Source: a virus
Lineage: Duplodnaviria > Heunggongvirae > Uroviricota > Caudoviricetes
IMG/VR virus record: IMGVR_UViG_2585427750_000031
DNA length: 10,792 nucleotides
Strand: one strand, 5' to 3'
The position numbers and the translations under genes are program-made. Position 1 is the first letter of the stretch. The number at the start of each line of letters is the position of its first letter. Positions 297-10,792 of this stretch are shown here, piece by piece. The notes under the pieces are model-generated. The model had not been told where the DNA came from. It did not search any database and saw nothing but the letters and a program-made list of their open reading frames with translations.

Positions 297-537
297 ATAC
301 ACCAAAACTGAGTCAGATTCACGTTATGTGAGAGACATGCGGCTGGGCGGTGCATCTACATATAAACCAGCAAATAATGGTACTACATGGACGCATCAGG
401 CTCCGTCAGGTTGCGTATATACCGGCATTATTGTTCAGGATACCGGCTCAAACTCTGCCGATAACATTGGTGGCGTATATTACAGACCGGTGCAGAAATA
501 CATTAACGGGACATGGTATAACGTGGCGCAGGTATAA
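297..537 (+). pseudogene. H: 3' remnant of a phage tail-fibre gene (P2 H-like), truncated by the IS2 insertion
   Basis: Frame 1 stays open straight out of the IS2 end to TAA at 535-537. The translation (...GASTYKPANNGTTWTHQAPSGCVYTGIIVQDTGSNSADNIGGVYYRPVQKYINGTWYNVAQV) looks like a tail-fibre C-terminal receptor-binding region. It sits immediately upstream of a tail-fibre assembly gene, as H-G does in P2. Confidence 0.6.
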
Positions 538-540
538 TTT

Positions 541-1068
541 ATGCAGCATTTAAAAAATATTACGGCGGGGAATCCAAAAACGGTTGAACAATATCAATTG
601 ACAAAGGACTTTGATGTTGTCTGGTTTTTTTCAGAAGATGGTAAGAACTGGTACGAAGAACAAAAGTATTTTGCTGATGACACGATAAAAATAGCGTACG
701 ACAAAGATAATATCATCCACTATGTGGAAAAGGATGTGACAGCTATCAGACCGGATGGATTAAGTGTTGTTGAAGTGGCGGATATTACTGCTAACCGACG
801 GGCGGACATTTCAGGGAACTGGATGTTTAAGGACGGCAAAGTGATTAAACGCATTTATACGGCAGAGGAATTACAGCAGCAGGCAGAAATTCGGAAAGCC
901 AGACTTCTTGCAGATGCTGAATCCGTGATTTTGCCGCTGGAGCGCGCGGTCAGACTGAACATGGCAACAGATGAGGAGCGTAGCCGACTGGAATCATGGG
1001 AACGCTACAGCGTTCTGATCAGTCGTGTGGATCCTGCAAATCCTGAATGGCCGGAAATGCCGCAATAA
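541..1068 (+). CDS. G: Tail-fibre assembly protein (P2 gpG-like Tfa chaperone)
   Basis: 175-aa ORF. The C-terminal half (...[42 protein letters not shown]) is the characteristic conserved tail-fibre-assembly motif. Position directly after the tail-fibre gene. Confidence 0.9.
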
Positions 1069-1129
1069 GTTGTATGAACTCTTGTGTGAGCTTACATACC
1101 TATAGAACAGAGTAAAGCCTAATCTGACA

Positions 1130-1153
1130 GTCCGCTCTGTGCCAGGAGCGGAC
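1130..1153 (+). other. Stem-loop (8-bp stem GTCCGCTC / GAGCGGAC, 8-nt loop) about 60 bp downstream of G; possible end of the fibre operon transcript
   Basis: Perfect inverted repeat read directly from the sequence. There is no U-tract after it, so it is not a canonical intrinsic terminator. Confidence 0.25.
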
Positions 1154-1388
1154 ATAACGACACGTTAGTTAGAAATCTCAAGACCAATTAGGTTGGATAC
1201 TTACATGTATACTATTGCCTAACGATACTACCCTATCAACCTCATGGTTTATAGGCGGGGGGGAGAGCCAATCGAACGCTATCGTACGTTTTTATGCTGT
1301 CTACCCTAGACCCCAAGTAGACATGAATCTTACCTGATTTCCATACGAGGGCGACGTTGATCATCCAGCTTTAGTGCGAGCACTGAAC

Positions 1389-1417
1389 TTAACATTTACC
1401 AGCAATAGTGATATTTT
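1389..1417 (+). promoter_or_regulatory. Candidate sigma70 promoter for the cargo protease gene (TTAACA - 17 bp - TG-n-TATTTT)
   Basis: -35-like TTAACA at 1389-1394 and extended -10 TGaTATTTT at 1409-1417 with 17-bp spacing, in an AT-rich stretch about 45 bp upstream of ATG 1462. By-eye motif match only. Confidence 0.3.
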
Positions 1418-1461
1418 CTACAAAGAAAAATATATGGAATAACGTCATCGCGGGTACAAAA

Positions 1462-2454
1462 ATGACTATAAAAAAAACATATGTAACACCAACAGAAATA
1501 GTGAAATATTTTTATGACAAACCGGAAAACGATAACGTAAAAGAGAGAAAAACAATTGAGAGCCTGACCCGTCTCAAACCTGAGTGGGAAAATACTCTCG
1601 ATATGATGAAGTTAATACGCAATTGTGAAAAGCTAGCAACTGAAGGTATTTTAATGGAATTATCTTCAGGACATACTCTTTTGGACCGTTGCTATTTCGC
1701 ACCGAATTTCAATGAATCAGATGCGAAATATGGAAAGTATGATTTTATAGCTGATGGATTTGAGTCAATCATAGACCGCCTTAGTCCTTCCGTTTTACCT
1801 GTTGTTGTTGAAAAAAGTGATGGTTCACATGATCTTGGTACTAGTTTTATTGTTGGGAATAACCACACGATATTTACAGCCAGACATGTTATTGAAGACA
1901 TGAAGAGTATCAGGATACTTAGAGCTGGTGGTGAGGCTTTACCAATACATAAAATCTTTGTATCTAACGATGAACGTATTGATATCGCTTTAGTTTTCAC
2001 AACCATTCCGAATGAAGATAATATTCAACCACTTAAGGTCTCAACCAAAGCCTCGGTACTGGATGAAATTTTATCAATAGGATTTCCACCCATTCCAGGA
2101 TTTGATGCATTAAAGTTATATGACGTTTCGCATATAAATTCGTTTGTCCGACTGTCAAAGGGGCGAATTGTTGGTTCTGGTCACTCTTACTTAGATTCAC
2201 AAGACTTTTTATTATTCAATGCTAGGGTTAAGGGGGGGAATAGCGGTGGCCCTATAATTAACAAATACGGCTTTGTTGTTGGTATGCTTGTACAAATACC
2301 AATATCATCTGAGGACAGTTCAAAGATTGATAACCTTGGATATGGTATAGCTGTAACAGGAAAAAGCCTGCTGGATGCCATTACATTTACAGAAAATGGC
2401 CGCGAATTAACACTCACCGACCGAGGAAATGGAGAATATTCAACTCTAGCATAA
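1462..2454 (+). CDS. Two-domain protein: N-terminal domain of unknown function (~120 aa) plus C-terminal trypsin-like (S1 / chymotrypsin-fold) serine protease; candidate cargo/defence gene
   Basis: Long ORF (track 1408..2454). The C-terminal half carries an ordered His/Asp/Ser triad in the usual motifs: TARH(142)VIED, ERID(174)IALVF, GGNS(261)GGPII, numbered from ATG 1462. No N-terminal signal peptide and no PDZ domain. Start chosen at ATG 1462 because GTG 1408 overlaps the candidate promoter; 1408 remains possible. The gene is strongly AT-rich compared with the flanking phage genes. Confidence 0.8.
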   Translation: MTIKKTYVTPTEIVKYFYDKPENDNVKERKTIESLTRLKPEWENTLDMMKLIRNCEKLATEGILMELSSGHTLLDRCYFAPNFNESDAKYGKYDFIADGFESIIDRLSPSVLPVVVEKSDGSHDLGTSFIVGNNHTIFTARHVIEDMKSIRILRAGGEALPIHKIFVSNDERIDIALVFTTIPNEDNIQPLKVSTKASVLDEILSIGFPPIPGFDALKLYDVSHINSFVRLSKGRIVGSGHSYLDSQDFLLFNARVKGGNSGGPIINKYGFVVGMLVQIPISSEDSSKIDNLGYGIAVTGKSLLDAITFTENGRELTLTDRGNGEYSTLA

Positions 2455-2929
2455 ATGATATTATTAATTAAGTTGTACTAACTCAGTTTAAATGAATCAA
2501 GCATCCCCGTAACTTTGCCTGAAAAGGCTCATCGAGGGATGCACATTGTACGGATGTGTGAAAACTAAATCGGCTTTGTCACTTGGATTCGAGGGGAAAA
2601 CTGAACTGAAAGCGATAAAAACGTCTAAAAAATCGTTTCGCAGACAGATGCACCCGATTCAAGCCATTTTGAGGAAGGCTTTCTGCCTTTTATATTTATA
2701 TTAATCATAAGCTTATTCCATTGGTGTACGATATCGTGCTTTGCCCCTCATCTCCCAGATAACTAATTAGCCTTAAAATTACTCATGTGTTTCTGCCGGT
2801 TAAAATTATATGGTTTTCATTTACAATAGTCTCAAGTCCGCTCTTCGCTCAAAGCAGACTGTCAGATTTGATAGCATTTGGGCTATGTAAATTGTCAGGC
2901 GGAAAATGAGTGAGTACAAATCAGGACAG

Positions 2930-2957
2930 GCGGGCGAATTGCCCGCATTTTCTTTAT
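2930..2957 (+). terminator. Rho-independent terminator closing the cargo segment, upstream of the FI late promoter
   Basis: GCGGGC-gaatt-GCCCGC hairpin (2930-2946) followed by ATTTTCTTTAT. Confidence 0.5.
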
Positions 2958-2958
2958 C

Positions 2959-3030
2959 TGTTGTTTCATCCCCTGACCAGCCAGGTCAAATAGCGTCTCA
3001 TGCTCTGCACAACAGAAAATAGTTGCACCC
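2959..3030 (+). promoter_or_regulatory. Region expected to hold the Ogr-activated late promoter of the FI-FII-E-T-U-D operon (P2 PF equivalent)
   Basis: P2 synteny predicts a late promoter here. It contains a perfect dyad TGACC-agcca-GGTCA (2974-2988) and the distal pair TGTTGT (2959-2964) / ACAACA (3009-3014). I could not find an exact TGT-N12-ACA match, so the precise site is unresolved. Confidence 0.3.
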
Positions 3031-3051
3031 ATTAACCACGGAGTTAAACGG

Positions 3052-4242
3052 ATGAGTGACTATCATCACGGTGTGCAGGTGCTGGAGATTAACGACGGCA
3101 CCCGCGTCATTTCCACCGTATCCACGGCCATTGTCGGCATGGTCTGCACGGCCAGCGATGCGGATGCGGAAACCTTCCCCCTCAATAAACCGGTGCTGAT
3201 TACCAATGTGCAGAGCGCAATTGCAAAGGCCGGTAAAAAAGGCACGCTGGCGGCATCGTTGCAGGCCATCGCCGACCAGTCAAAACCGGTCACCGTTGTC
3301 GTGCGTGTGGAAGACGGCACCGGCGACGACGAGGAAACGAAACTCGCGCAGACCGTTTCCAATATCATCGGCACCACTGACGAAAACGGTCAGTACACCG
3401 GACTGAAAGCCCTGCTGGCGGCGGAGTCGGTAACCGGTGTTAAACCGCGTATTCTTGGTGTGCCGGGGCTGGATACCAAAGAGGTGGCTGTTGCACTGGC
3501 ATCAGTCTGTCAGAAGCTGCGCGCTTTCGGATATATCAGCGCATGGGGCTGTAAAACCATTTCCGAGGTGAAAGCCTACCGCCAGAATTTCAGCCAGCGT
3601 GAGCTGATGGTCATCTGGCCGGATTTCCTCGCATGGGATACGGTCACCAGTACCACCGCCACCGCGTATGCCACCGCCCGTGCGCTGGGTCTGCGTGCCA
3701 AAATCGACCAGGAGCAGGGCTGGCATAAAACGCTGTCCAACGTCGGGGTAAACGGTGTTACCGGCATCAGCGCATCTGTATTCTGGGATTTGCAGGAGTC
3801 CGGCACCGATGCTGACCTGCTTAACGAGTCAGGCGTCACTACGCTGATTCGCCGCGACGGTTTCCGATTCTGGGGTAACCGTACCTGCTCTGATGACCCG
3901 CTGTTCCTCTTTGAAAACTACACCCGCACCGCGCAGGTGCTGGCCGACACGATGGCTGAGGCGCACATGTGGGCGGTGGACAAGCCCATCACTGCAACGC
4001 TGATTCGCGACATTGTTGACGGCATCAATGCCAAATTCCGTGAGCTGAAAACAAACGGCTATATCGTGGATGCGACCTGCTGGTTCAGCGAAGAATCCAA
4101 CGATGCGGAAACCCTCAAGGCCGGAAAACTGTATATCGACTACGACTATACACCGGTGCCTCCTCTTGAAAACCTGACCCTGCGCCAGCGTATTACCGAT
4201 AAATACCTGGCAAATCTGGTCACCTCGGTTAACAGCAATTAA
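3052..4242 (+). CDS. FI: Contractile tail sheath protein (P2 gpFI)
   Basis: 396-aa ORF, the same length as P2 FI. GGAG Shine-Dalgarno 8 nt upstream. Gene order FI-FII-E-T-U-D follows. Confidence 0.95.
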   Translation: MSDYHHGVQVLEINDGTRVISTVSTAIVGMVCTASDADAETFPLNKPVLITNVQSAIAKAGKKGTLAASLQAIADQSKPVTVVVRVEDGTGDDEETKLAQTVSNIIGTTDENGQYTGLKALLAAESVTGVKPRILGVPGLDTKEVAVALASVCQKLRAFGYISAWGCKTISEVKAYRQNFSQRELMVIWPDFLAWDTVTSTTATAYATARALGLRAKIDQEQGWHKTLSNVGVNGVTGISASVFWDLQESGTDADLLNESGVTTLIRRDGFRFWGNRTCSDDPLFLFENYTRTAQVLADTMAEAHMWAVDKPITATLIRDIVDGINAKFRELKTNGYIVDATCWFSEESNDAETLKAGKLYIDYDYTPVPPLENLTLRQRITDKYLANLVTSVNSN

Positions 4243-4254
4243 GGAGCCTGACCG

Positions 4255-4773
4255 ATGGCAATGCCGCGCAAACTCAAGTTAATGAACGTCTTTCTGAACG
4301 GCTACAGCTATCAGGGCGTCGCGAAGTCCGTCACGCTGCCAAAACTGACCCGTAAGCTCGAAAACTATCGCGGTGCGGGGATGAACGGCAGCGCACCGGT
4401 AGACCTCGGCCTTGATGACGATGCGCTGTCAATGGAGTGGTCGCTCGGTGGCTTCCCGGATTCGGTTATCTGGGAGCTTTACGCCGCAACCGGTGTGGAT
4501 GCCGTACCGATTCGTTTTGCAGGCTCTTACCAGCGCGACGATACCGGCGAAACGGTGGCCGTCGAGGTGGTCATGCGTGGCCGTCAGAAAGAAATCGATA
4601 CCGGCGAGGGTAAACAAGGAGAAGACACCGAGTCGAAAATCTCCGTGGTCTGCACCTATTTCCGGTTGACGATGGACGGTAAGGAGCTGGTCGAAATCGA
4701 CACCATCAACATGATTGAGAAGGTGAACGGCGTCGACCGGCTGGAGCAACACCGCCGCAATATCGGCCTGTGA
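4255..4773 (+). CDS. FII: Tail tube protein (P2 gpFII)
   Basis: 172-aa ORF, the same length as P2 FII, directly after FI with an AAGGAG Shine-Dalgarno. Confidence 0.95.
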   Translation: MAMPRKLKLMNVFLNGYSYQGVAKSVTLPKLTRKLENYRGAGMNGSAPVDLGLDDDALSMEWSLGGFPDSVIWELYAATGVDAVPIRFAGSYQRDDTGETVAVEVVMRGRQKEIDTGEGKQGEDTESKISVVCTYFRLTMDGKELVEIDTINMIEKVNGVDRLEQHRRNIGL

Positions 4774-4780
4774 TTTTCAT

Positions 4781-4801
4781 CCGGTCAGCCTGGCTGACCG
4801 G
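4781..4801 (+). other. GC-rich stem-loop (9-bp stem CCGGTCAGC / GCTGACCGG, 3-nt loop) between FII and E; possible attenuator or RNA-processing element
   Basis: Perfect inverted repeat starting 8 nt after the FII stop. No U-tract follows, so it is not a canonical terminator. Confidence 0.35.
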
Positions 4802-4829
4802 TTAACCCCGATTCAGAAGTGAGAAAACC

Positions 4830-5105
4830 ATGAACAAAGAAAACGTCATTACCCTGGATAATCCGGTCAAGCGTGGTGAACAGGTTATCGAACAGGTCAC
4901 GCTGATGAAACCCAATGCCGGGACGCTGCGCGGTGTCAGTCTGGCTGCGGTCGCGAACTCTGAAGTCGATGCACTGATTAAGGTGCTGCCGCGCATGACG
5001 GCACCGATGCTGACCGAGCAGGAAGTCGCCGCGCTGGAACTGCCTGACCTTGTGGCGCTGGCCGGTAAGGTGGTCGGTTTTTTGTCGCCGAACTCGGTGC
5101 AGTGA
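4830..5105 (+). CDS. E: Tail assembly chaperone (P2 gpE)
   Basis: 91-aa ORF, the same length and position as P2 E. The slippery heptamer lies six codons before its stop. Confidence 0.9.
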   Translation: MNKENVITLDNPVKRGEQVIEQVTLMKPNAGTLRGVSLAAVANSEVDALIKVLPRMTAPMLTEQEVAALELPDLVALAGKVVGFLSPNSVQ

Positions 5106-5257
5106 CGTTTCCGAAAAATCTCTCGGTCGATGACCTGATGGCGGATGTGGCAGTGATATTTCACTGGCCGCCATCAGAACTGTATCCCATGAGCCTGACC
5201 GAACTCATCACATGGCGCGAAAAGGCGCTCCGGCGAAGCGGAAACACGAATGAGTAA
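4830..5257 (+). CDS. E': Tail assembly chaperone frameshift product E+E' (programmed -1 ribosomal frameshift at 5078-5084)
   Basis: After a -1 slip on T-TTT-TTG the reading frame is open from 5084 to TAA at 5255-5257 (57 codons: VAELGAVTFPKNLSVDDLMADVAVIFHWPPSELYPMSLTELITWREKALRRSGNTNE). That gives a 142-aa product overlapping the T start, as described for P2 E'. Confidence 0.75.
5078..5084 (+). promoter_or_regulatory. Slippery heptamer TTTTTTG for the E/E' -1 frameshift
   Basis: Six T then G at 5078-5084, in the E frame as T-TTT-TTG. Confidence 0.75.
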
Positions 5258-7697
5258 CAATGTAAAATTACAGGTATTGCTCAGGGCTGTTGACCAGGCA
5301 TCCCGCCCGTTTAAATCCATCCGCACAGCGAGCAAGTCGCTGTCGGGGGATATCCGGGAAACACAAAAATCACTGCGCGAGCTGAACGGTCACGCATCCC
5401 GTATTGAGGGATTTCGCAAGACCAGTGCGCAGCTCGCCGTGACTGGTCATGCACTTGAAAAGGCACGGCAGGAAGCCGAAGCCCTTGCCACACAGTTTAA
5501 AAACACCGAACGTCCGACCCGTGCTCAGGCGAAAGTGCTGGAATCCGCAAAGCGTGCGGCGGAGGACTTACAGGCGAAATATAACCGCCTGACGGATTCC
5601 GTTAAACGCCAGCAGCGGGAACTGGCCGCTGTGGGAATTAATACCCGCAATCTTGCACATGATGAGCAGGGGCTGAAAAACCGTATCAGTGAAACCACCG
5701 CACAGCTTAACCGGCAGCGTGACGCGCTGGCGCGTGTCAGTGCACAACAGGCAAAACTTAACGCAGTCAAACAGCGTTATCAGGCAGGAAAAGAACTTGC
5801 CGGAAATATGGCCTCAGTGGGCGCTGCCGGTGTGGGGATTGCGGCGGCGGGAACGATGGCCGGAGTTAAGCTGCTGATGCCCGGTTATGAGTTTGCGCAG
5901 AAAAACTCAGAATTGCAGGCCGTGCTCGGTGTGGCAAAAGATTCCGCCGAAATGGCCGCGCTCCGCAAACAGGCGCGCCAGCTCGGCGACAATACCGCCG
6001 CCTCAGCGGATGATGCGGCCGGTGCGCAGATTATCATTGCGAAAGCGGGTGGAGATGCTGCGGCTATTCAGGCGGCAACGCCGGTCACGCTGAATATGGC
6101 ACTGGCGAATCAGCGGTCGATGGAAGAAAACGCGCAACTGTTGCTGGGGACTAAGGCATCCTTTCAACTGTCAAATGATGATGTCAGCCATGTGGGCGAC
6201 GTGTTGTCGGCAACGATGAATAAGTCGGCGGCTGATTTTCAGGGACTCAGTGATGCACTGACTTACCTCGGTCCGGTTGCGAGGACGGCAGGTGTAAGTC
6301 TTGAACAGGCAGCGGCCATGACAGGTGTGCTGCATGACAATAACATCAGGGGGTCAATGGCGGGGACGGGTGGCAGTGCCGTTGTCACCCGATTACAGGC
6401 ACCGACTGGAAAAGCATGGGATGCACTCAAAGAGCTTGGCGTTAAAACCTCGGACAAAAAGGGAAATATGCGTCCGTTGTTCACCATTCTGAAAGAGATT
6501 CAGGCCAGCTTTGATAAACACAAGCTGGGAACGTCTCAGAAGGGGGAATACCTTAAAACCATTTTTGGTGAGGAAGCCCTGAAATCAGCGAACGTTTTAC
6601 TGGCAGCGGCTGCAAGCGGAAAACTGGATAAGCTGACCGCCACACTGAAAGCCTCAGACGGTAAAACGGAAGAGCTGGTTAAAATCATGCAGGACAACCT
6701 CGGCGGTGACTTTAAGGAGTTTCAGTCCGCTTATGAAGCGGTGGGGACTGACCTGTTTGACCAGCAGGAAGGCGCACTGCGTAAGCTCACGCAGACGGCC
6801 ACAAAGTATGTGTTAAAACTCGACGGCTGGATACAGAAAAACAAATCACTGGCGTCAACCATTGGCCTAATTGCCGGTGGCGCGCTGGCGCTTACTGGCA
6901 TCATCGGTGCCATTGGTCTTGTAGCCTGGCCGGTTATCACCGGCATCAATGCCATCATCGCGGCAGCAGGCGCAATGGGGGCAATCTTCACGACGGTTGG
7001 CAGTGCTGTTATGACCGCCATCGGGGCGATTAGCTGGCCGGTTGTGGCCGTGGTGGCCGCCATTGTCGCCGGGGCGTTGCTTATCCGTAAATACTGGGAG
7101 CCTGTCAGCGCATTCTTTGGCGGTGTGATGGAAGGGCTGAAAGCGGCATTTGCGCCGGTGGGGGAACTGTTCACGCCACTTAAGCCGGTGTTTGACTGGC
7201 TGGGCGAAAAGTTACAGGCCGCGTGGCAGTGGTTTAAAAACCTGATTGCCCCGGTCAAAGCCACCCAGGACACCCTGAACCGTTGCCGTGATACTGGCGT
7301 CATGTTCGGGCAGGCACTGGCTGACGCGCTGATGCTGCCGCTTAATGCGTTCAACAAACTGCGCAGCGGAATTGACTGGGTACTGGAAAAACTCGGTGTT
7401 ATCAACAAAGAGTCAGACACACTTGACCAGACCGCCGCCAGAACTCAAGCCGCCACGTATGGCAGCGGTGGTTATATTCCGGCGACCAGCTCTTATGCAG
7501 GCTATCAGGCTTATCAGCCGGTTACGGCACCGGCTGGCCGCTCTTATGTGGACCAGAGTAAAAACGAATATCACATCAGCCTGACGGGTGGTACTGCGCC
7601 GGGGACACAGCTTGACCGCCAGTTACAGGATGCGCTCGAAAAATACGAGCGGGATAAACGTGCGCGCGCCCGTGCCAGCATGATGCATGACGGTTAA
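5250..7697 (+). CDS. T: Tail tape measure protein (P2 gpT)
   Basis: 815-aa ORF, the same length as P2 T. N-terminal coiled-coil-like, Ala/Gln-rich sequence and a C-terminal hydrophobic Gly/Ala-rich segment typical of tape measure proteins. Its start overlaps the E' end. Confidence 0.95.
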   Translation: MSNNVKLQVLLRAVDQASRPFKSIRTASKSLSGDIRETQKSLRELNGHASRIEGFRKTSAQLAVTGHALEKARQEAEALATQFKNTERPTRAQAKVLESAKRAAEDLQAKYNRLTDSVKRQQRELAAVGINTRNLAHDEQGLKNRISETTAQLNRQRDALARVSAQQAKLNAVKQRYQAGKELAGNMASVGAAGVGIAAAGTMAGVKLLMPGYEFAQKNSELQAVLGVAKDSAEMAALRKQARQLGDNTAASADDAAGAQIIIAKAGGDAAAIQAATPVTLNMALANQRSMEENAQLLLGTKASFQLSNDDVSHVGDVLSATMNKSAADFQGLSDALTYLGPVARTAGVSLEQAAAMTGVLHDNNIRGSMAGTGGSAVVTRLQAPTGKAWDALKELGVKTSDKKGNMRPLFTILKEIQASFDKHKLGTSQKGEYLKTIFGEEALKSANVLLAAAASGKLDKLTATLKASDGKTEELVKIMQDNLGGDFKEFQSAYEAVGTDLFDQQEGALRKLTQTATKYVLKLDGWIQKNKSLASTIGLIAGGALALTGIIGAIGLVAWPVITGINAIIAAAGAMGAIFTTVGSAVMTAIGAISWPVVAVVAAIVAGALLIRKYWEPVSAFFGGVMEGLKAAFAPVGELFTPLKPVFDWLGEKLQAAWQWFKNLIAPVKATQDTLNRCRDTGVMFGQALADALMLPLNAFNKLRSGIDWVLEKLGVINKESDTLDQTAARTQAATYGSGGYIPATSSYAGYQAYQPVTAPAGRSYVDQSKNEYHISLTGGTAPGTQLDRQLQDALEKYERDKRARARASMMHDG

Positions 7698-7711
7698 GGA
7701 GGTGACGAAAA

Positions 7712-8191
7712 ATGATGCTCGCGTTAGGTATGTTTGTTTTTATGCGCCAGACGCTGCCACACCAGACCATGCAGCGTGAATCAGATTATCGCTGGCCGTC
7801 AAATTCCCGTATCGGTAAACGGGATGCCTTTCAGTTTCTCGGTGTGGGTGAGGAAAACATCACACTTGCCGGCGTGCTTTATCCCGAACTGACCGGCGGG
7901 AAGCTGACGATGACCACGCTCAGGCTGATGGCAGAGGAAGGCCGGGCGTGGCCGTTGCTGGATGGCACCGGCATGATTTACGGCATGTATGTCATCAGCA
8001 AGGTGAGTGAAACAGGGAGTATTTTCTTTGCAGATGGCACACCCCGAAAAATTGATTTTACGCTGTCGCTCACCCGCGTTGATGAATCACTGGCCGCGCT
8101 TTATGGCGATATCGGTAAACAGGCGGAATCGCTCATCGGTAAGGCTGGCAGTATGGCGACTAAATTCACGGGTATGACGGGGGCGGGATAA
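7712..8191 (+). CDS. U: Tail protein (P2 gpU)
   Basis: 159-aa ORF, the same length and position as P2 U. Strong AAGGAGGTGA Shine-Dalgarno upstream. Confidence 0.93.
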   Translation: MMLALGMFVFMRQTLPHQTMQRESDYRWPSNSRIGKRDAFQFLGVGEENITLAGVLYPELTGGKLTMTTLRLMAEEGRAWPLLDGTGMIYGMYVISKVSETGSIFFADGTPRKIDFTLSLTRVDESLAALYGDIGKQAESLIGKAGSMATKFTGMTGAG

Positions 8192-9354
8192 TGCTGGATG
8201 CGCTGACATTTGATGCAGGCAGTACGCTGACGCCGGATTACATGCTGATGCTCGACAGCAGGGATATTACCGGCAATATCAGCGACCGTCTGATGAGCAT
8301 GACCCTGACGGATAACCGGGGCTTTGAGGCTGACCAGCTTGATATTGAACTGAACGATGCCGACGGGCAGGTCGGGCTGCCGGTTCGTGGCGCTGTCCTG
8401 ACGGTGTATATCGGCTGGAAAGGTTTTGCCCTGGTATGCAAAGGGAAATTTACCGTTGATGAGGTTGAACACCGGGGCGCACCGGATGTGGTCACCATCC
8501 GCGCCCGGAGTGCAGATTTTCGCGGGACGCTCAATTCCCGCCGTGAAGGCTCCTGGCATGACACCACGCTCGGTGCGATTGTTGAGGCGATAGCCTCCCG
8601 TAACTGGCTGGAAGCCAGTGTCGTTCCATCACTGGCCGGAATTAAAATCCCGCACATCGACCAGTCGCAGGAGTCTGATGCAAAATTCCTGACCCGCCTT
8701 GCTGAACGCAACGGCGGTGAGGTGTCGGTAAAAATGGGAAAACTGTTGTTTCTCAAAGCGGGGCAGGGGGTGACGGCCAGCGGTAAAAAAGTCCCGCAGG
8801 TCACCATAACCCGCAGCGACGGCGACCGCCATCATTTTGCGATTGCTGACCGTGGAGCCTATACCGGCGTAACGGCAAAGTGGTTACACACCAAAGACCC
8901 GAAGCCGCAAAAGCAGAAGGTAAAACTGAAACGCAAAAAGAAAGAGAAACACCTGCGCGCACTGGAGCACCCGAAAGCGAAACCAGTCACGCAGAAGAAA
9001 GCGCCAAAAGTACCGGAAGCGCGCGAAGGTGAATACATGGCCGGTGAGGCTGACAACGTTTTTGCACTGACCACGGTATATGCCACGAAAGCACAGGCCA
9101 TGCGCGCCGCTCAGGCGAAGTGGGATAAACTGCAACGGGGTGTGGCGGAGTTCTCCATCAGCCTGGCTACCGGTCGGGCAGATATTTACACGGAAACACC
9201 GGTTAAAGTGTCAGGCTTTAAGCGCGTCATAGACGAGCAGGACTGGACAATCACTAAGGTGACACATTTTCTGAATAATAGCGGCTTCACGACGTCCTTA
9301 GAGCTTGAGGTCAGGCTTTCTGATGTGGAGTACGAAACCGAAGATGATGAGTGA
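8191..9354 (+). CDS. D: Tail protein D (P2 gpD)
   Basis: 387-aa ORF, the same length and position as P2 D. Its ATG overlaps the U stop codon (TAATG). Confidence 0.93.
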   Translation: MLDALTFDAGSTLTPDYMLMLDSRDITGNISDRLMSMTLTDNRGFEADQLDIELNDADGQVGLPVRGAVLTVYIGWKGFALVCKGKFTVDEVEHRGAPDVVTIRARSADFRGTLNSRREGSWHDTTLGAIVEAIASRNWLEASVVPSLAGIKIPHIDQSQESDAKFLTRLAERNGGEVSVKMGKLLFLKAGQGVTASGKKVPQVTITRSDGDRHHFAIADRGAYTGVTAKWLHTKDPKPQKQKVKLKRKKKEKHLRALEHPKAKPVTQKKAPKVPEAREGEYMAGEADNVFALTTVYATKAQAMRAAQAKWDKLQRGVAEFSISLATGRADIYTETPVKVSGFKRVIDEQDWTITKVTHFLNNSGFTTSLELEVRLSDVEYETEDDE

Positions 9355-9372
9355 TGTTTTTATTTTATCTGT

Positions 9373-9401
9373 TTGTTTTATAAGGATAAATTAACTAAAA
9401 T
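9373..9401 (+). promoter_or_regulatory. Candidate ogr promoter (TTGTTT - 17 bp - TAAAAT)
   Basis: -35-like TTGTTT at 9373-9378 and -10-like TAAAAT at 9396-9401, 17-bp spacing, upstream of ogr ATG 9436. By-eye motif match. Confidence 0.35.
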
Positions 9402-9435
9402 GGCACCATCAACAAAACCGGAAGAGGTGCTCGCG

Positions 9436-9654
9436 ATGTTTCATTGTCCTTTATGCCAGCATGCCGCACATGCGCGTACAAGCCGCTATATCACTGACAC
9501 GACAAAAGAGCGTTATCACCAGTGTCAGAACGTGAATTGCAGCGCCACGTTCATCACTTATGAGTCGGTACAGCGATACATCGTGAAGCCGGGAGAAGTC
9601 CACGCCGTAAGGCCGCACCCGTTACCATCAGGACAGCAAATTATGTGGATGTGA
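9436..9654 (+). CDS. ogr: Late-gene transcriptional activator Ogr (zinc-finger protein)
   Basis: 72-aa product MFHCPLCQHAAHARTSRYITDTTKERYHQCQNVNCSATFITYESVQRYIVKPGEVHAVRPHPLPSGQQIMWM with the C-x2-C ... C-x4-C zinc-binding pattern; it matches P2 Ogr as I remember it. GGAAGAGG Shine-Dalgarno upstream. The track ORF (9373) is an upstream TTG extension that I discount. Confidence 0.9.
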   Translation: MFHCPLCQHAAHARTSRYITDTTKERYHQCQNVNCSATFITYESVQRYIVKPGEVHAVRPHPLPSGQQIMWM

Positions 9655-9664
9655 TCACAAAAAT

Positions 9665-9690
9665 AGCCCCTCAGTTGAGGGGCTTATTTA
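9665..9690 (+). terminator. Rho-independent terminator after ogr (end of the prophage late region)
   Basis: AGCCCCTC-agtt-GAGGGGCT hairpin followed by TATTTA, 11 nt after the ogr stop. Confidence 0.65.
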
Positions 9691-9782
9691 TGGTCGATGT
9701 GGACGCTATGTGGACAGTGCTTGATATAAATCCATTTATATCATCAGGTTAGGTGCTTTTTTGTGACACCATCCCTGTCTTC
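9691..9782 (+). other. Prophage right junction (attR side): the phage/host boundary and att core are expected within this interval
   Basis: In an integrated P2-like prophage ogr is the last gene before attR, and host DNA (fieF) follows within ~200 bp. The exact core cannot be determined without the attL end. Confidence 0.4.
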
Positions 9783-9808
9783 CCCCACATGATGTGGGGT
9801 TTTTTTTT
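9751..9808 (+). ncRNA. cpxQ: Possible 3' end of host cpxP mRNA / CpxQ 3'UTR-derived sRNA, including its terminator
   Basis: The sequence GTGACACCATCCCTGTCTTCCCCCACATGATGTGGGG-T9 resembles what I recall of the conserved cpxP 3'UTR/CpxQ. cpxP lies immediately upstream of fieF in E. coli K-12. This is from memory and not verified. Confidence 0.25.
9783..9808 (+). terminator. Rho-independent terminator (CCCCAC-atgat-GTGGGG followed by nine T)
   Basis: GC-rich hairpin plus a T9 tract, read directly from the sequence. Confidence 0.7.
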
Positions 9809-9836
9809 ATCCTCAATTTGCCTGCTGCTTAATGCA

Positions 9837-9863
9837 TTGCAGATGATTTGCTTCCGTTATACT
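9837..9863 (+). promoter_or_regulatory. Candidate fieF promoter (TTGCAG - 15 bp - TATACT)
   Basis: -10-like TATACT at 9858-9863 and -35-like TTGCAG at 9837-9842, about 27 bp upstream of the fieF ATG. The spacer is short, so this is a weak call. Confidence 0.3.
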
Positions 9864-9889
9864 AGCGTCAGTTGATAGCGGGAGTATTT

Positions 9890-10792
9890 ATGAATCAATC
9901 TTATGGACGGCTGGTCAGTCGGGCGGCGATTGCTGCGACGGCGATGGCTTCGTTGCTATTGCTGATTAAAATTTTTGCATGGTGGTATACCGGGTCGGTG
10001 AGTATTCTCGCCGCGCTGGTGGATTCGCTGGTGGATATCGGCGCGTCGTTGACGAATTTATTGGTGGTGCGATATTCCCTGCAACCTGCCGACGATAATC
10101 ACTCGTTTGGTCACGGTAAAGCTGAGTCCCTCGCGGCGCTGGCGCAAAGTATGTTTATCTCCGGTTCGGCACTATTCCTGTTTTTGACGGGTATTCAACA
10201 TCTGATATCTCCAACACCGATGACAGATCCAGGCGTCGGGGTTATCGTGACAATTGTGGCGCTAATTTGTACGATTATCCTTGTCTCGTTTCAGCGTTGG
10301 GTGGTGCGGCGGACGCAAAGCCAGGCGGTGCGGGCTGATATGCTACATTACCAGTCTGATGTTATGATGAACGGCGCAATTCTGCTGGCGCTGGGGTTGT
10401 CCTGGTACGGCTGGCATCGCGCCGATGCTCTGTTTGCATTGGGAATCGGCATCTATATTTTATATAGCGCGTTACGCATGGGATATGAGGCGGTACAGTC
10501 ATTACTGGATCGCGCATTGCCTGATGAGGAACGGCAAGAAATTATTGATATCGTGACTTCCTGGCCGGGTGTTAGCGGCGCTCACGATCTTCGCACGCGG
10601 CAGTCAGGGCCGACCCGCTTTATTCAGATTCATTTGGAAATGGAAGACTCTCTGCCTTTGGTTCAGGCACATATGGTGGCGGATCAGGTAGAGCAGGCTA
10701 TTTTACGGCGTTTTCCGGGATCGGATGTAATTATCCATCAGGACCCCTGTTCCGTCGTACCCAGGGAGGGTAAACGGTCTATGCTTTCATAA
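9890..10792 (+). CDS. fieF: Cation-diffusion-facilitator family Fe(II)/Zn(II) efflux transporter FieF (YiiP)
   Basis: 300-aa product starting [49 protein letters not shown]..., recognisable as E. coli FieF/YiiP, with transmembrane segments and the CDF signature. GGAG Shine-Dalgarno 5 nt upstream. The stop codon is the last three bases of the window. Confidence 0.95.

Follow-up and report, generated by a model that had tools for sequence, protein, structure and literature searches.

Where the phage ends and the chromosome begins between the late-gene activator ogr and the host gene fieF, and what becomes there of the small RNA CpxQ, is the question raised by a stretch of viral DNA of 10,792 nucleotides (IMG/VR record IMGVR_UViG_2585427750_000031), referred to here as the window. 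CpxQ is an sRNA of the cpxP 3' UTR that depends on Hfq and RNase E; it was reportedly described in 2016 by Chao and Vogel and is said to carry a second, internal seed. A preliminary description of the window had placed a prophage/chromosome junction at 9655-9889 and proposed that a P2-like phage integrates there at the 3' end of cpxP. Our analysis leads us to conclude with high confidence that 9655-9889 is the attR of a WPhi-type prophage of the P2 family that lies inside cpxQ and arose by ordinary site-specific integration.

Organization of the ogr-fieF interval

The right end of the window contains the following features, given in window coordinates.

8191-9354: gpD, in the right end of the window
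9436-9654 (+): ogr, P2-family late-gene activator and last phage gene before the junction (Pfam Ogr_Delta, E 1.1e-21)
9655-9764 (+): P arm of the phage attP, very probably the phage side of attR; not in unlysogenized E. coli
9665-9684: two-way intrinsic terminator past ogr, 8-bp GC-rich stem with T-rich tails on both strands (scan and fold)
9698-9716 (+): putative arm-type integrase repeats TGTGGACG and TGTGGACA
9722-9751: AT-rich palindrome with overlapping IHF-like site, of putative function
9765-9811 (+): 47-bp att core, common to phage attP and host attB
9765-9808 (+): 5'-truncated copy of CpxQ, nt 15-58 of 58 (alignment to K-12 cpxQ)
9783-9808 (+): predicted Rho-independent terminator of CpxQ, hairpin and T9, between prophage and fieF (scan and fold)
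9800 (+): T in place of the G of attP, attL, and attB, at position 36 of the core
9812-9889 (+): host cpxQ-fieF spacer with the fieF upstream region, identical to K-12
9890-10792 (+): fieF, host CDF metal exporter (annotation; Pfam Cation_efflux 8.6e-51, ZT_dimer 1.5e-26)

The end of ogr, which is labeled ogrK in the annotation of near-identical genomes, and the fieF start codon are separated by 235 bp; ogr and its terminator thus lie closely 5' of fieF, as had been described with an estimated spacing of about 200 bp. The ogr terminator scored on both strands in the terminator scan, and its predicted fold has an energy of -18.0 kcal/mol (z -4.4 relative to shuffled controls). The scan also detected a second hairpin at 9783-9799, with a stem of 7-8 bp and a 3-nt loop, followed by the T-tract to 9808; the 57-nt stretch that holds it folds at -16.9 kcal/mol (z -2.6 relative to shuffled controls). 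The strong intrinsic terminator proposed earlier for 9783-9808 was therefore recovered by both scan and folding, and a GC-rich hairpin followed by a U-tract is the pattern predicted for such an element.

Breakpoints and the 47-bp att core

The breakpoint was approached from both sides of the junction. On the host side, 9655-9889 was compared with 5426 complete E. coli genomes, every one of which (5426/5426) matched its cpxQ-fieF part with E values of about 1e-54 to 3e-56, well outside what chance would produce. Most matched query bases 111-235 only, corresponding to the window from 9765 onward, and the whole query was matched in 790/5426. On the phage side, window 9300-9830 was compared with phage genomes and matched 94 records, including WPhi, the Yersinia phage vB_YpM series, and several Salmonella phages; in nearly all of these the match ends at query base 512, which is window position 9811. 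Since host homology begins at 9765 and phage homology extends to 9811, the 47-bp overlap represents the att core, GACACCATCCCTGTCTTCCCCCACATGATGTGGGGGTTTTTTTTATC, which around its variant base reads GACACCATCCCTGTCTTCCCCCACATGATGTGGGG(T)TTTTTTTTATC. The predicted junction between prophage and chromosome is thus real, with genomes that carry only host sequence matching from the left edge of the core and phage genomes matching to its right edge.

The two flanks of the core have clearly different origins. To the right, 9765-10792 shows only 3 mismatches in 1028 bases relative to K-12, and the spacer 3' of the core is one in which the fieF promoter has been placed (PMC4817254). To the left and through the core, the 512 nt at 9300-9811 are 96.7% identical to WPhi, which together with arm repeats of the P2 type supports the earlier assignment to a P2-like phage. 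Alignment with the K-12 cpxP-fieF region located the breakpoint at 9765, inside the CpxQ gene, with 9765-9889 aligning from cpxQ nt 15 through to fieF, and so confirmed the suggestion of a breakpoint in the cpxP 3' UTR. The resemblance to the cpxP 3' end noted earlier for the sequence preceding the terminator was confirmed, with the correction that this sequence matches K-12 cpxQ from 9765 onward and that the 110 bp at 9655-9764 are phage DNA.

When the four types of site are listed side by side, the core is flanked by host sequence on both sides in K-12 (attB), by the P and P' arms in WPhi (attP), by host sequence and the P' arm at attL, and by the P arm and host sequence at attR. The window core agrees with the WPhi attP core at 46/47 positions; agreement is 47/47 at the attL of strain 120899, and 47/47 at both attL and attR in an O145 strain and in strain 14EC020. 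The one difference is the T at 9800, where attP, attL, and attB all have G, and because of it the attR core of the window is not identical to attL. It leaves the terminator stem one pair shorter, with a small effect on the terminator in the predicted fold. An exact 101-mer with T at 9800 was found in 17/786 lysogens, many of them labeled ETEC or sibling isolates.

The phage arm of attR

The segment between ogr and the core contains two TGTGGAC repeats, one at 9698-9705 and one at 9709-9716, whose starts are 11 bp apart. Both fit the P2-type arm consensus tgTGGaCa (PMC3448106), and WPhi and the lysogens have a matching pair, GTGTGGACACTATGTGGACAC, next to int in the P' arm (at about 3096-3116 in locus L004, and in locus L003). 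Single TGTGGACA motifs occur in the window at chance frequency and are not enriched; it is their tandem arrangement and their position that would mark these repeats as arm-type sites. From their sequence and by analogy, they would be bound by the N-terminal domain of Int. A third motif, TATGTGGA, occurs at 9642-9649, at the very end of ogr and 65 bp 5' of the arm-type repeats, and may represent either a further arm-type site or a coincidence.

Between the repeats and the core lies a perfect 10-bp AT-rich palindrome at 9722-9743, overlapped at 9739-9751 by an IHF-consensus-like sequence, TATCATCAGGTTA, which has 1 mismatch and whose pattern is as frequent in the window as expected by chance. 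The comparison with P2 attP suggests 9722-9751 as a putative DNA-bending region of the P arm. In the core itself, the inverted repeat of the terminator, CCCCCA/TGGGGG, is a candidate for the pair of core-type Int sites flanking strand exchange, again by analogy.

CpxQ is truncated at attR and intact at attL in relatives

In K-12, the cpxQ ncRNA (b4716; RefSeq NC_000913.3 4106330-4106387; L001:1831-1888 in our numbering of the K-12 locus) begins 9 nt past the cpxP stop and ends 81 nt before fieF. The att core starts at CpxQ nt 15 and ends 3 bp beyond the last U. What remains of CpxQ in the window is thus its terminator and its conserved C/U-rich interior, with 2 differences from K-12; phage sequence, GGTGCTTTTTTGT, stands in place of the first 14 nt, UUUUCCUUGCCAUA, and of the RNase E site upstream of them. 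The 5' end of CpxQ serves as the seed for nhaB and cfa (PMC6755755). The window copy follows ogr and the P arm rather than cpxP, whereas at attL in relatives CpxQ does follow cpxP. What the window carries is a truncated relic and not the gene; the functional cpxQ is that of attL, beyond the window.

Related lysogens provide the other end of the prophage. At the attL of strain 120899, the cpxP stop is followed by 9 nt, TTTTCCTTGCCATA, the 47-bp core, and the P' arm, an arrangement that yields a complete 58-nt CpxQ. The same order of TTTTCCTTGCCATA and core constitutes attL in 3 lysogens, with the same CpxQ as the majority E. coli allele, and the 14-mer UUUUCCUUGCCAUA is present at every attL examined. 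Comparison with the attL end of relatives thus showed a core shared by both ends of the prophage and an intact CpxQ at attL. Because the attP core duplicates the 3' three-quarters of cpxQ, the gene is regenerated upon integration, as with phages that insert in tRNA genes. The sRNA locus had been described as split between phage-supplied and host-supplied copies at the two att sites; a partial copy is indeed present, but at attR only, and attL in relatives carries a full cpxP-cpxQ made of the 14 host nt and the core.

These observations are best explained by a simple course of events. The phage tyrosine integrase would recombine the 47-bp attP core with the identical host sequence, consisting of the last 44 nt of cpxQ (terminator hairpin and U-tract) and 3 further bp. 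With the duplicate of the cpxQ 3' segment carried by attP, the cpxP-cpxQ unit would be made whole again on the int side, at attL. The ogr side, attR, would be left with a copy of cpxQ that lacks its 5' part, for which no promoter was detected, directly 5' of an unchanged fieF control region. There the relic hairpin would do no more than add a terminator that shields fieF from transcription coming out of the prophage.

It was also suggested in the preliminary description that integration might alter envelope-stress signaling, a reading under which insertion damages or changes CpxQ and thereby the Cpx response of lysogens. The breakpoint does lie inside the sRNA gene, and at attL the DNA 3' of the CpxQ terminator is phage DNA in place of the fieF spacer. 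However, the attL CpxQ of the 3 lysogens is the 58-nt allele of most E. coli, its predicted structure is the same as that of K-12 (-17.4 kcal/mol for both), and its sole difference from K-12 is one loop base, A instead of C, that occurs in unlysogenized strains too. The predicted mature CpxQ at attL is thus unchanged, so that the sequence provides no ground for altered signaling; the attR copy, for its part, has neither the seed, nor the RNase E site, nor a promoter-like site. We consider damage to CpxQ very unlikely and retain the interpretation of an integration that restores the gene.

The loop base deserves further comment. The C of K-12 (L001:1872) corresponds to window position 9792, and A is found there in most E. 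coli and in all attP copies examined. An attL query matched at 100% through the core in unlysogenized O157:H7, ST131, ECOR29, and many other strains, and with 1 mismatch in K-12 derivatives. The A was considered as a phage-derived scar that would mark the crossover, and this was rejected because most unlysogenized E. coli carry A. If strand exchange spans the loop, K-12 would represent a slightly mismatched attB for WPhi-type phages.

In Rfam scans, neither the window nor K-12 showed a CpxQ family, or any significant family match to cpxQ, on the plus strand. The only notable hit was the family Hrs1 (RF02628, "Hfq-regulated sRNA 1"), which matched the opposite strand in both, at window 9742-9807 (-) with 28.8 bits and at L001:1816-1888 (-) with 41.4 bits (E 4.6e-7), both scores being below the gathering score of 56.4. 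The reverse complement of the Hrs1 consensus resembles CpxQ, including CCCUG/UUUUaCCUUGCCA, and the Hrs1 family may be a CpxQ homolog kept in antisense orientation.

Transcription at the two junctions

The promoter scan detected no promoter-like site between ogr and the core, and for this reason independent transcription of the relic at attR, which had been considered, was abandoned. The relic might instead be expressed by other means, such as transcription that continues past ogr or out of the late operon, and act as a seedless Hfq decoy or, via its C/U-rich region, as a partial CpxQ. It is located downstream of ogr on the same strand, and it keeps the invariant central 21 nt as well as a terminator hairpin and a U-tail of the type common among sRNAs that bind Hfq. 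Against this, transcription arriving from ogr would meet the strong terminator immediately past that gene, no promoter lies beyond it, and phage sequence occupies the place of the RNase E site and the 5' seed (PMC6755755). We accordingly give an expressed relic very little credence and continue to treat the attR copy as a byproduct of integration.

A different possibility concerns attL, where transcription of the prophage C-int operon may cross into the host and produce RNA antisense to cpxQ and cpxP that could dampen CpxQ or CpxP. The int gene converges on cpxP, and a consensus scan of the int strand from the int stop to cpxP showed no terminator-like site; once the phage is circular, this RNA would run into the two-way terminator of ogr. 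However, the scan compares sequence with a consensus only crudely, polymerase arriving from the int side may still be slowed by the CpxQ hairpin, and WPhi-type lysogens are common, at ~15% of genomes, with no Cpx phenotype mentioned in the literature cited. Antisense interference is therefore regarded as unlikely. Taking the two routes together, that WPhi-type lysogeny is non-neutral for the noncoding arm of the Cpx response, through antisense C-int read-through at attL or through an induced relic that competes for Hfq or targets, seems distinctly improbable to us. If true, it would mean that the phage tunes envelope-stress control via its chosen site.

Distribution and state of the prophage

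The site is empty, with an uninterrupted cpxP-cpxQ-fieF, in 4591/5426 complete E. coli genomes. The attR join was found in 790/5426 and the attL join likewise in 790/5426, the two sets having been counted separately, so that WPhi-type lysogeny involves ~15% of complete E. coli genomes. For the ~45 remaining genomes, an IS insertion such as that of strain 602687 is one possible cause. In this strain (NZ_CP189657.1), which is 100% identical to the window over 297-10792 apart from an extra ISEc22, the IS66-like ISEc22 lies between ogr and fieF (at about 10860-13555 of locus L127, in the region corresponding to window 9655-9889).

The closest fully examined relative is the prophage of strain 120899, which shares 99.47% identity with the window over 297-10792 and extends from int, next to cpxP, through ogr, next to fieF. 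Its Int is identical to WPhi Int at 325/326 residues and carries the Pfam domains Int_N and Phage_integrase. One further sequence in the E. coli set, NZ_JBQJRQ010000002.1 (32,330 bp), matches the queries in its core region alone (16233-16286); its size and pattern of matches suggest that it is the genome of a P2-family phage, carrying attP and assembled as a replicon of its own.

At the other end of the window, positions 1-310 are the end of an IS3-family (IS2-like) element abutting the tail-fiber region. This element is multi-copy in 4476/5426 E. coli genomes. Given this end and the annotation of the tail fiber gene as truncated in the closest relatives, the prophage lineage is probably defective. 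The window also contains a cargo gene at 1462-2454 (+), situated between the tail-fiber assembly gene and the tail sheath gene, that encodes a 330-aa S1/trypsin-like peptidase (Pfam Trypsin_2, 1.7e-17). Comparison of the peptidase with PADLOC gave weak matches, to the protease domains only of RT-Protease_XI, LmuA, and HamA. In other lysogens of the same att site, the cargo position is occupied by a SMEK-domain protein (in one) or a hypothetical protein (in another).

A lineage that looks defective might suggest a junction left over from an illegitimate or one-off rearrangement, and not a site-specific att site. The same two junctions, however, recur in 790 genomes, free phage genomes carry a matching attP, and Int homologs adjoin cpxQ in several other genera; we count this reading as refuted. 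Its probability is negligible, and the junction is best understood as a true attR.

The cpxQ site beyond E. coli

The left 21 nt of the core are found exactly in at least 120 Enterobacterales species representatives, in genera including Salmonella, Klebsiella, Citrobacter, Enterobacter, Serratia, Pantoea, Erwinia, Rahnella, and Edwardsiella. The 14 nt upstream of the core are TTTTCCTTGCCATA in 119/120 species loci, among the matches listed. With both the 14 nt and the 21 nt conserved across genera, the first 35 nt of CpxQ are invariant among these representatives. The CpxQ hairpin varies by paired changes, e.g., CCCCCTCATGATGAGGGGG and CCCCGCC...GGCGGGG. A search of species-representative genomes with the exact pattern of the P-arm/core junction gave no match, and the scan with the left 21 nt of the core returned host-type or attL-type copies only, among the matches listed.

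Homologs of WPhi Int at 60-88% identity, several of them partial, were detected by tblastn in 12/120 cpxQ loci of 8 kb, among the matches listed, including loci of Kosakonia, Yokenella, Salmonella enterica, Pseudocitrobacter, Rosenbergiella, and Serratia. At the junctions inspected, phage DNA begins directly 3' of cpxQ, and in Kosakonia and Yokenella the P' arm starts alike (ATC aatcacttac). This integrase lineage thus uses cpxQ as an attachment site in several genera. The invariance of the first 35 nt of CpxQ across Enterobacterales may explain the wide host range of the WPhi-type Int/att module, and it fits the usual logic of phage insertion at 3' ends, with small RNA genes under extreme conservation as targets.

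Relation to previous work

The attachment site itself is already known, and no new mechanism is implied. The WPhi site was reportedly mapped before 2011. In the E. coli W genome, the list of insertion sites includes "cpxP-fieF: Wphi1 (P2)" (PMC3032704), and the WPhi site has been given as MG1655 coordinate 4104392, with phage L-413C and prophage PhiECO7 sharing the site or the core (PMC3448106). A 31-kb prophage between cpxP and fieF was described in a study of O157:H7 (PMC7609406), and a preprint on Salmonella Infantis describes the 31.7-kb PhiESI between fieF and cpxP. These published descriptions of the cpxP-fieF prophage site do not mention CpxQ (PMC3032704, PMC3448106, PMC7609406, Infantis preprint), and a 2022 review of 3' UTR sRNAs mentions no prophage site in CpxQ. 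In the open literature that we could search, no publication was found that links CpxQ with a prophage or att site. The overlap of the core with CpxQ thus appears to be an unremarked point of annotation within the open literature searched, and it joins the literatures on the WPhi site and on CpxQ, which do not cite each other in the publications examined.

This point has practical consequences. About 1 in 7 complete E. coli genomes possesses a second, truncated cpxQ-like sequence before fieF, and this attR relic should not be taken for the cpxQ gene when RNA-seq reads are mapped, sRNAs predicted, or genomes aligned for comparison.

Comparison with known systems

The closest known system is coliphage WPhi (Peduovirus Wphi, AY135739), which the window prophage resembles in 46 of the 47 core positions, in the P arm, in the cpxP-fieF locus, and, as seen in a relative, in Int. 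It differs from WPhi in the G-to-T change within the core, the S1 peptidase cargo, and the IS2-like insertion. Like P2 attP, the WPhi-type site presents in order ogr, a terminator, two TGTGGACA-type arm repeats, an AT-rich and IHF-like region, the core, the P' repeat pair, and int. Unlike the WPhi-type site, P2 uses another core and other host sites (locI/locH), at another MG1655 coordinate (PMC3448106). A further P2-type prophage, Wphi2, and the K-12 remnant ogr-D' are found at the cyaR locus (PMC3032704).

The system also resembles the phages that integrate at the 3' ends of RNA genes, in that the core duplicates the 3' part of a conserved small RNA gene and the gene is rebuilt. Among such phages, 186 integrates in tRNA-Ile, Fels-2 and SopEPhi integrate in ssrA, and P2-like prophages occupy rybB and cyaR. 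The rebuilding of a gene after insertion at its 3' end is an established principle (PMC3448106), and the list of prophage sites in E. coli W includes rybB, cyaR, and ssrA (PMC3032704). In contrast to these free-standing genes, the target here is an sRNA processed from the 3' UTR of an mRNA, and the WPhi-type core covers the CpxQ terminator and internal conserved region and leaves out the 5' seed. Relative to the CpxQ gene, the copy in the window therefore shares nt 15-58, without the cpxP upstream region, the RNase E site, or the 5' seed.
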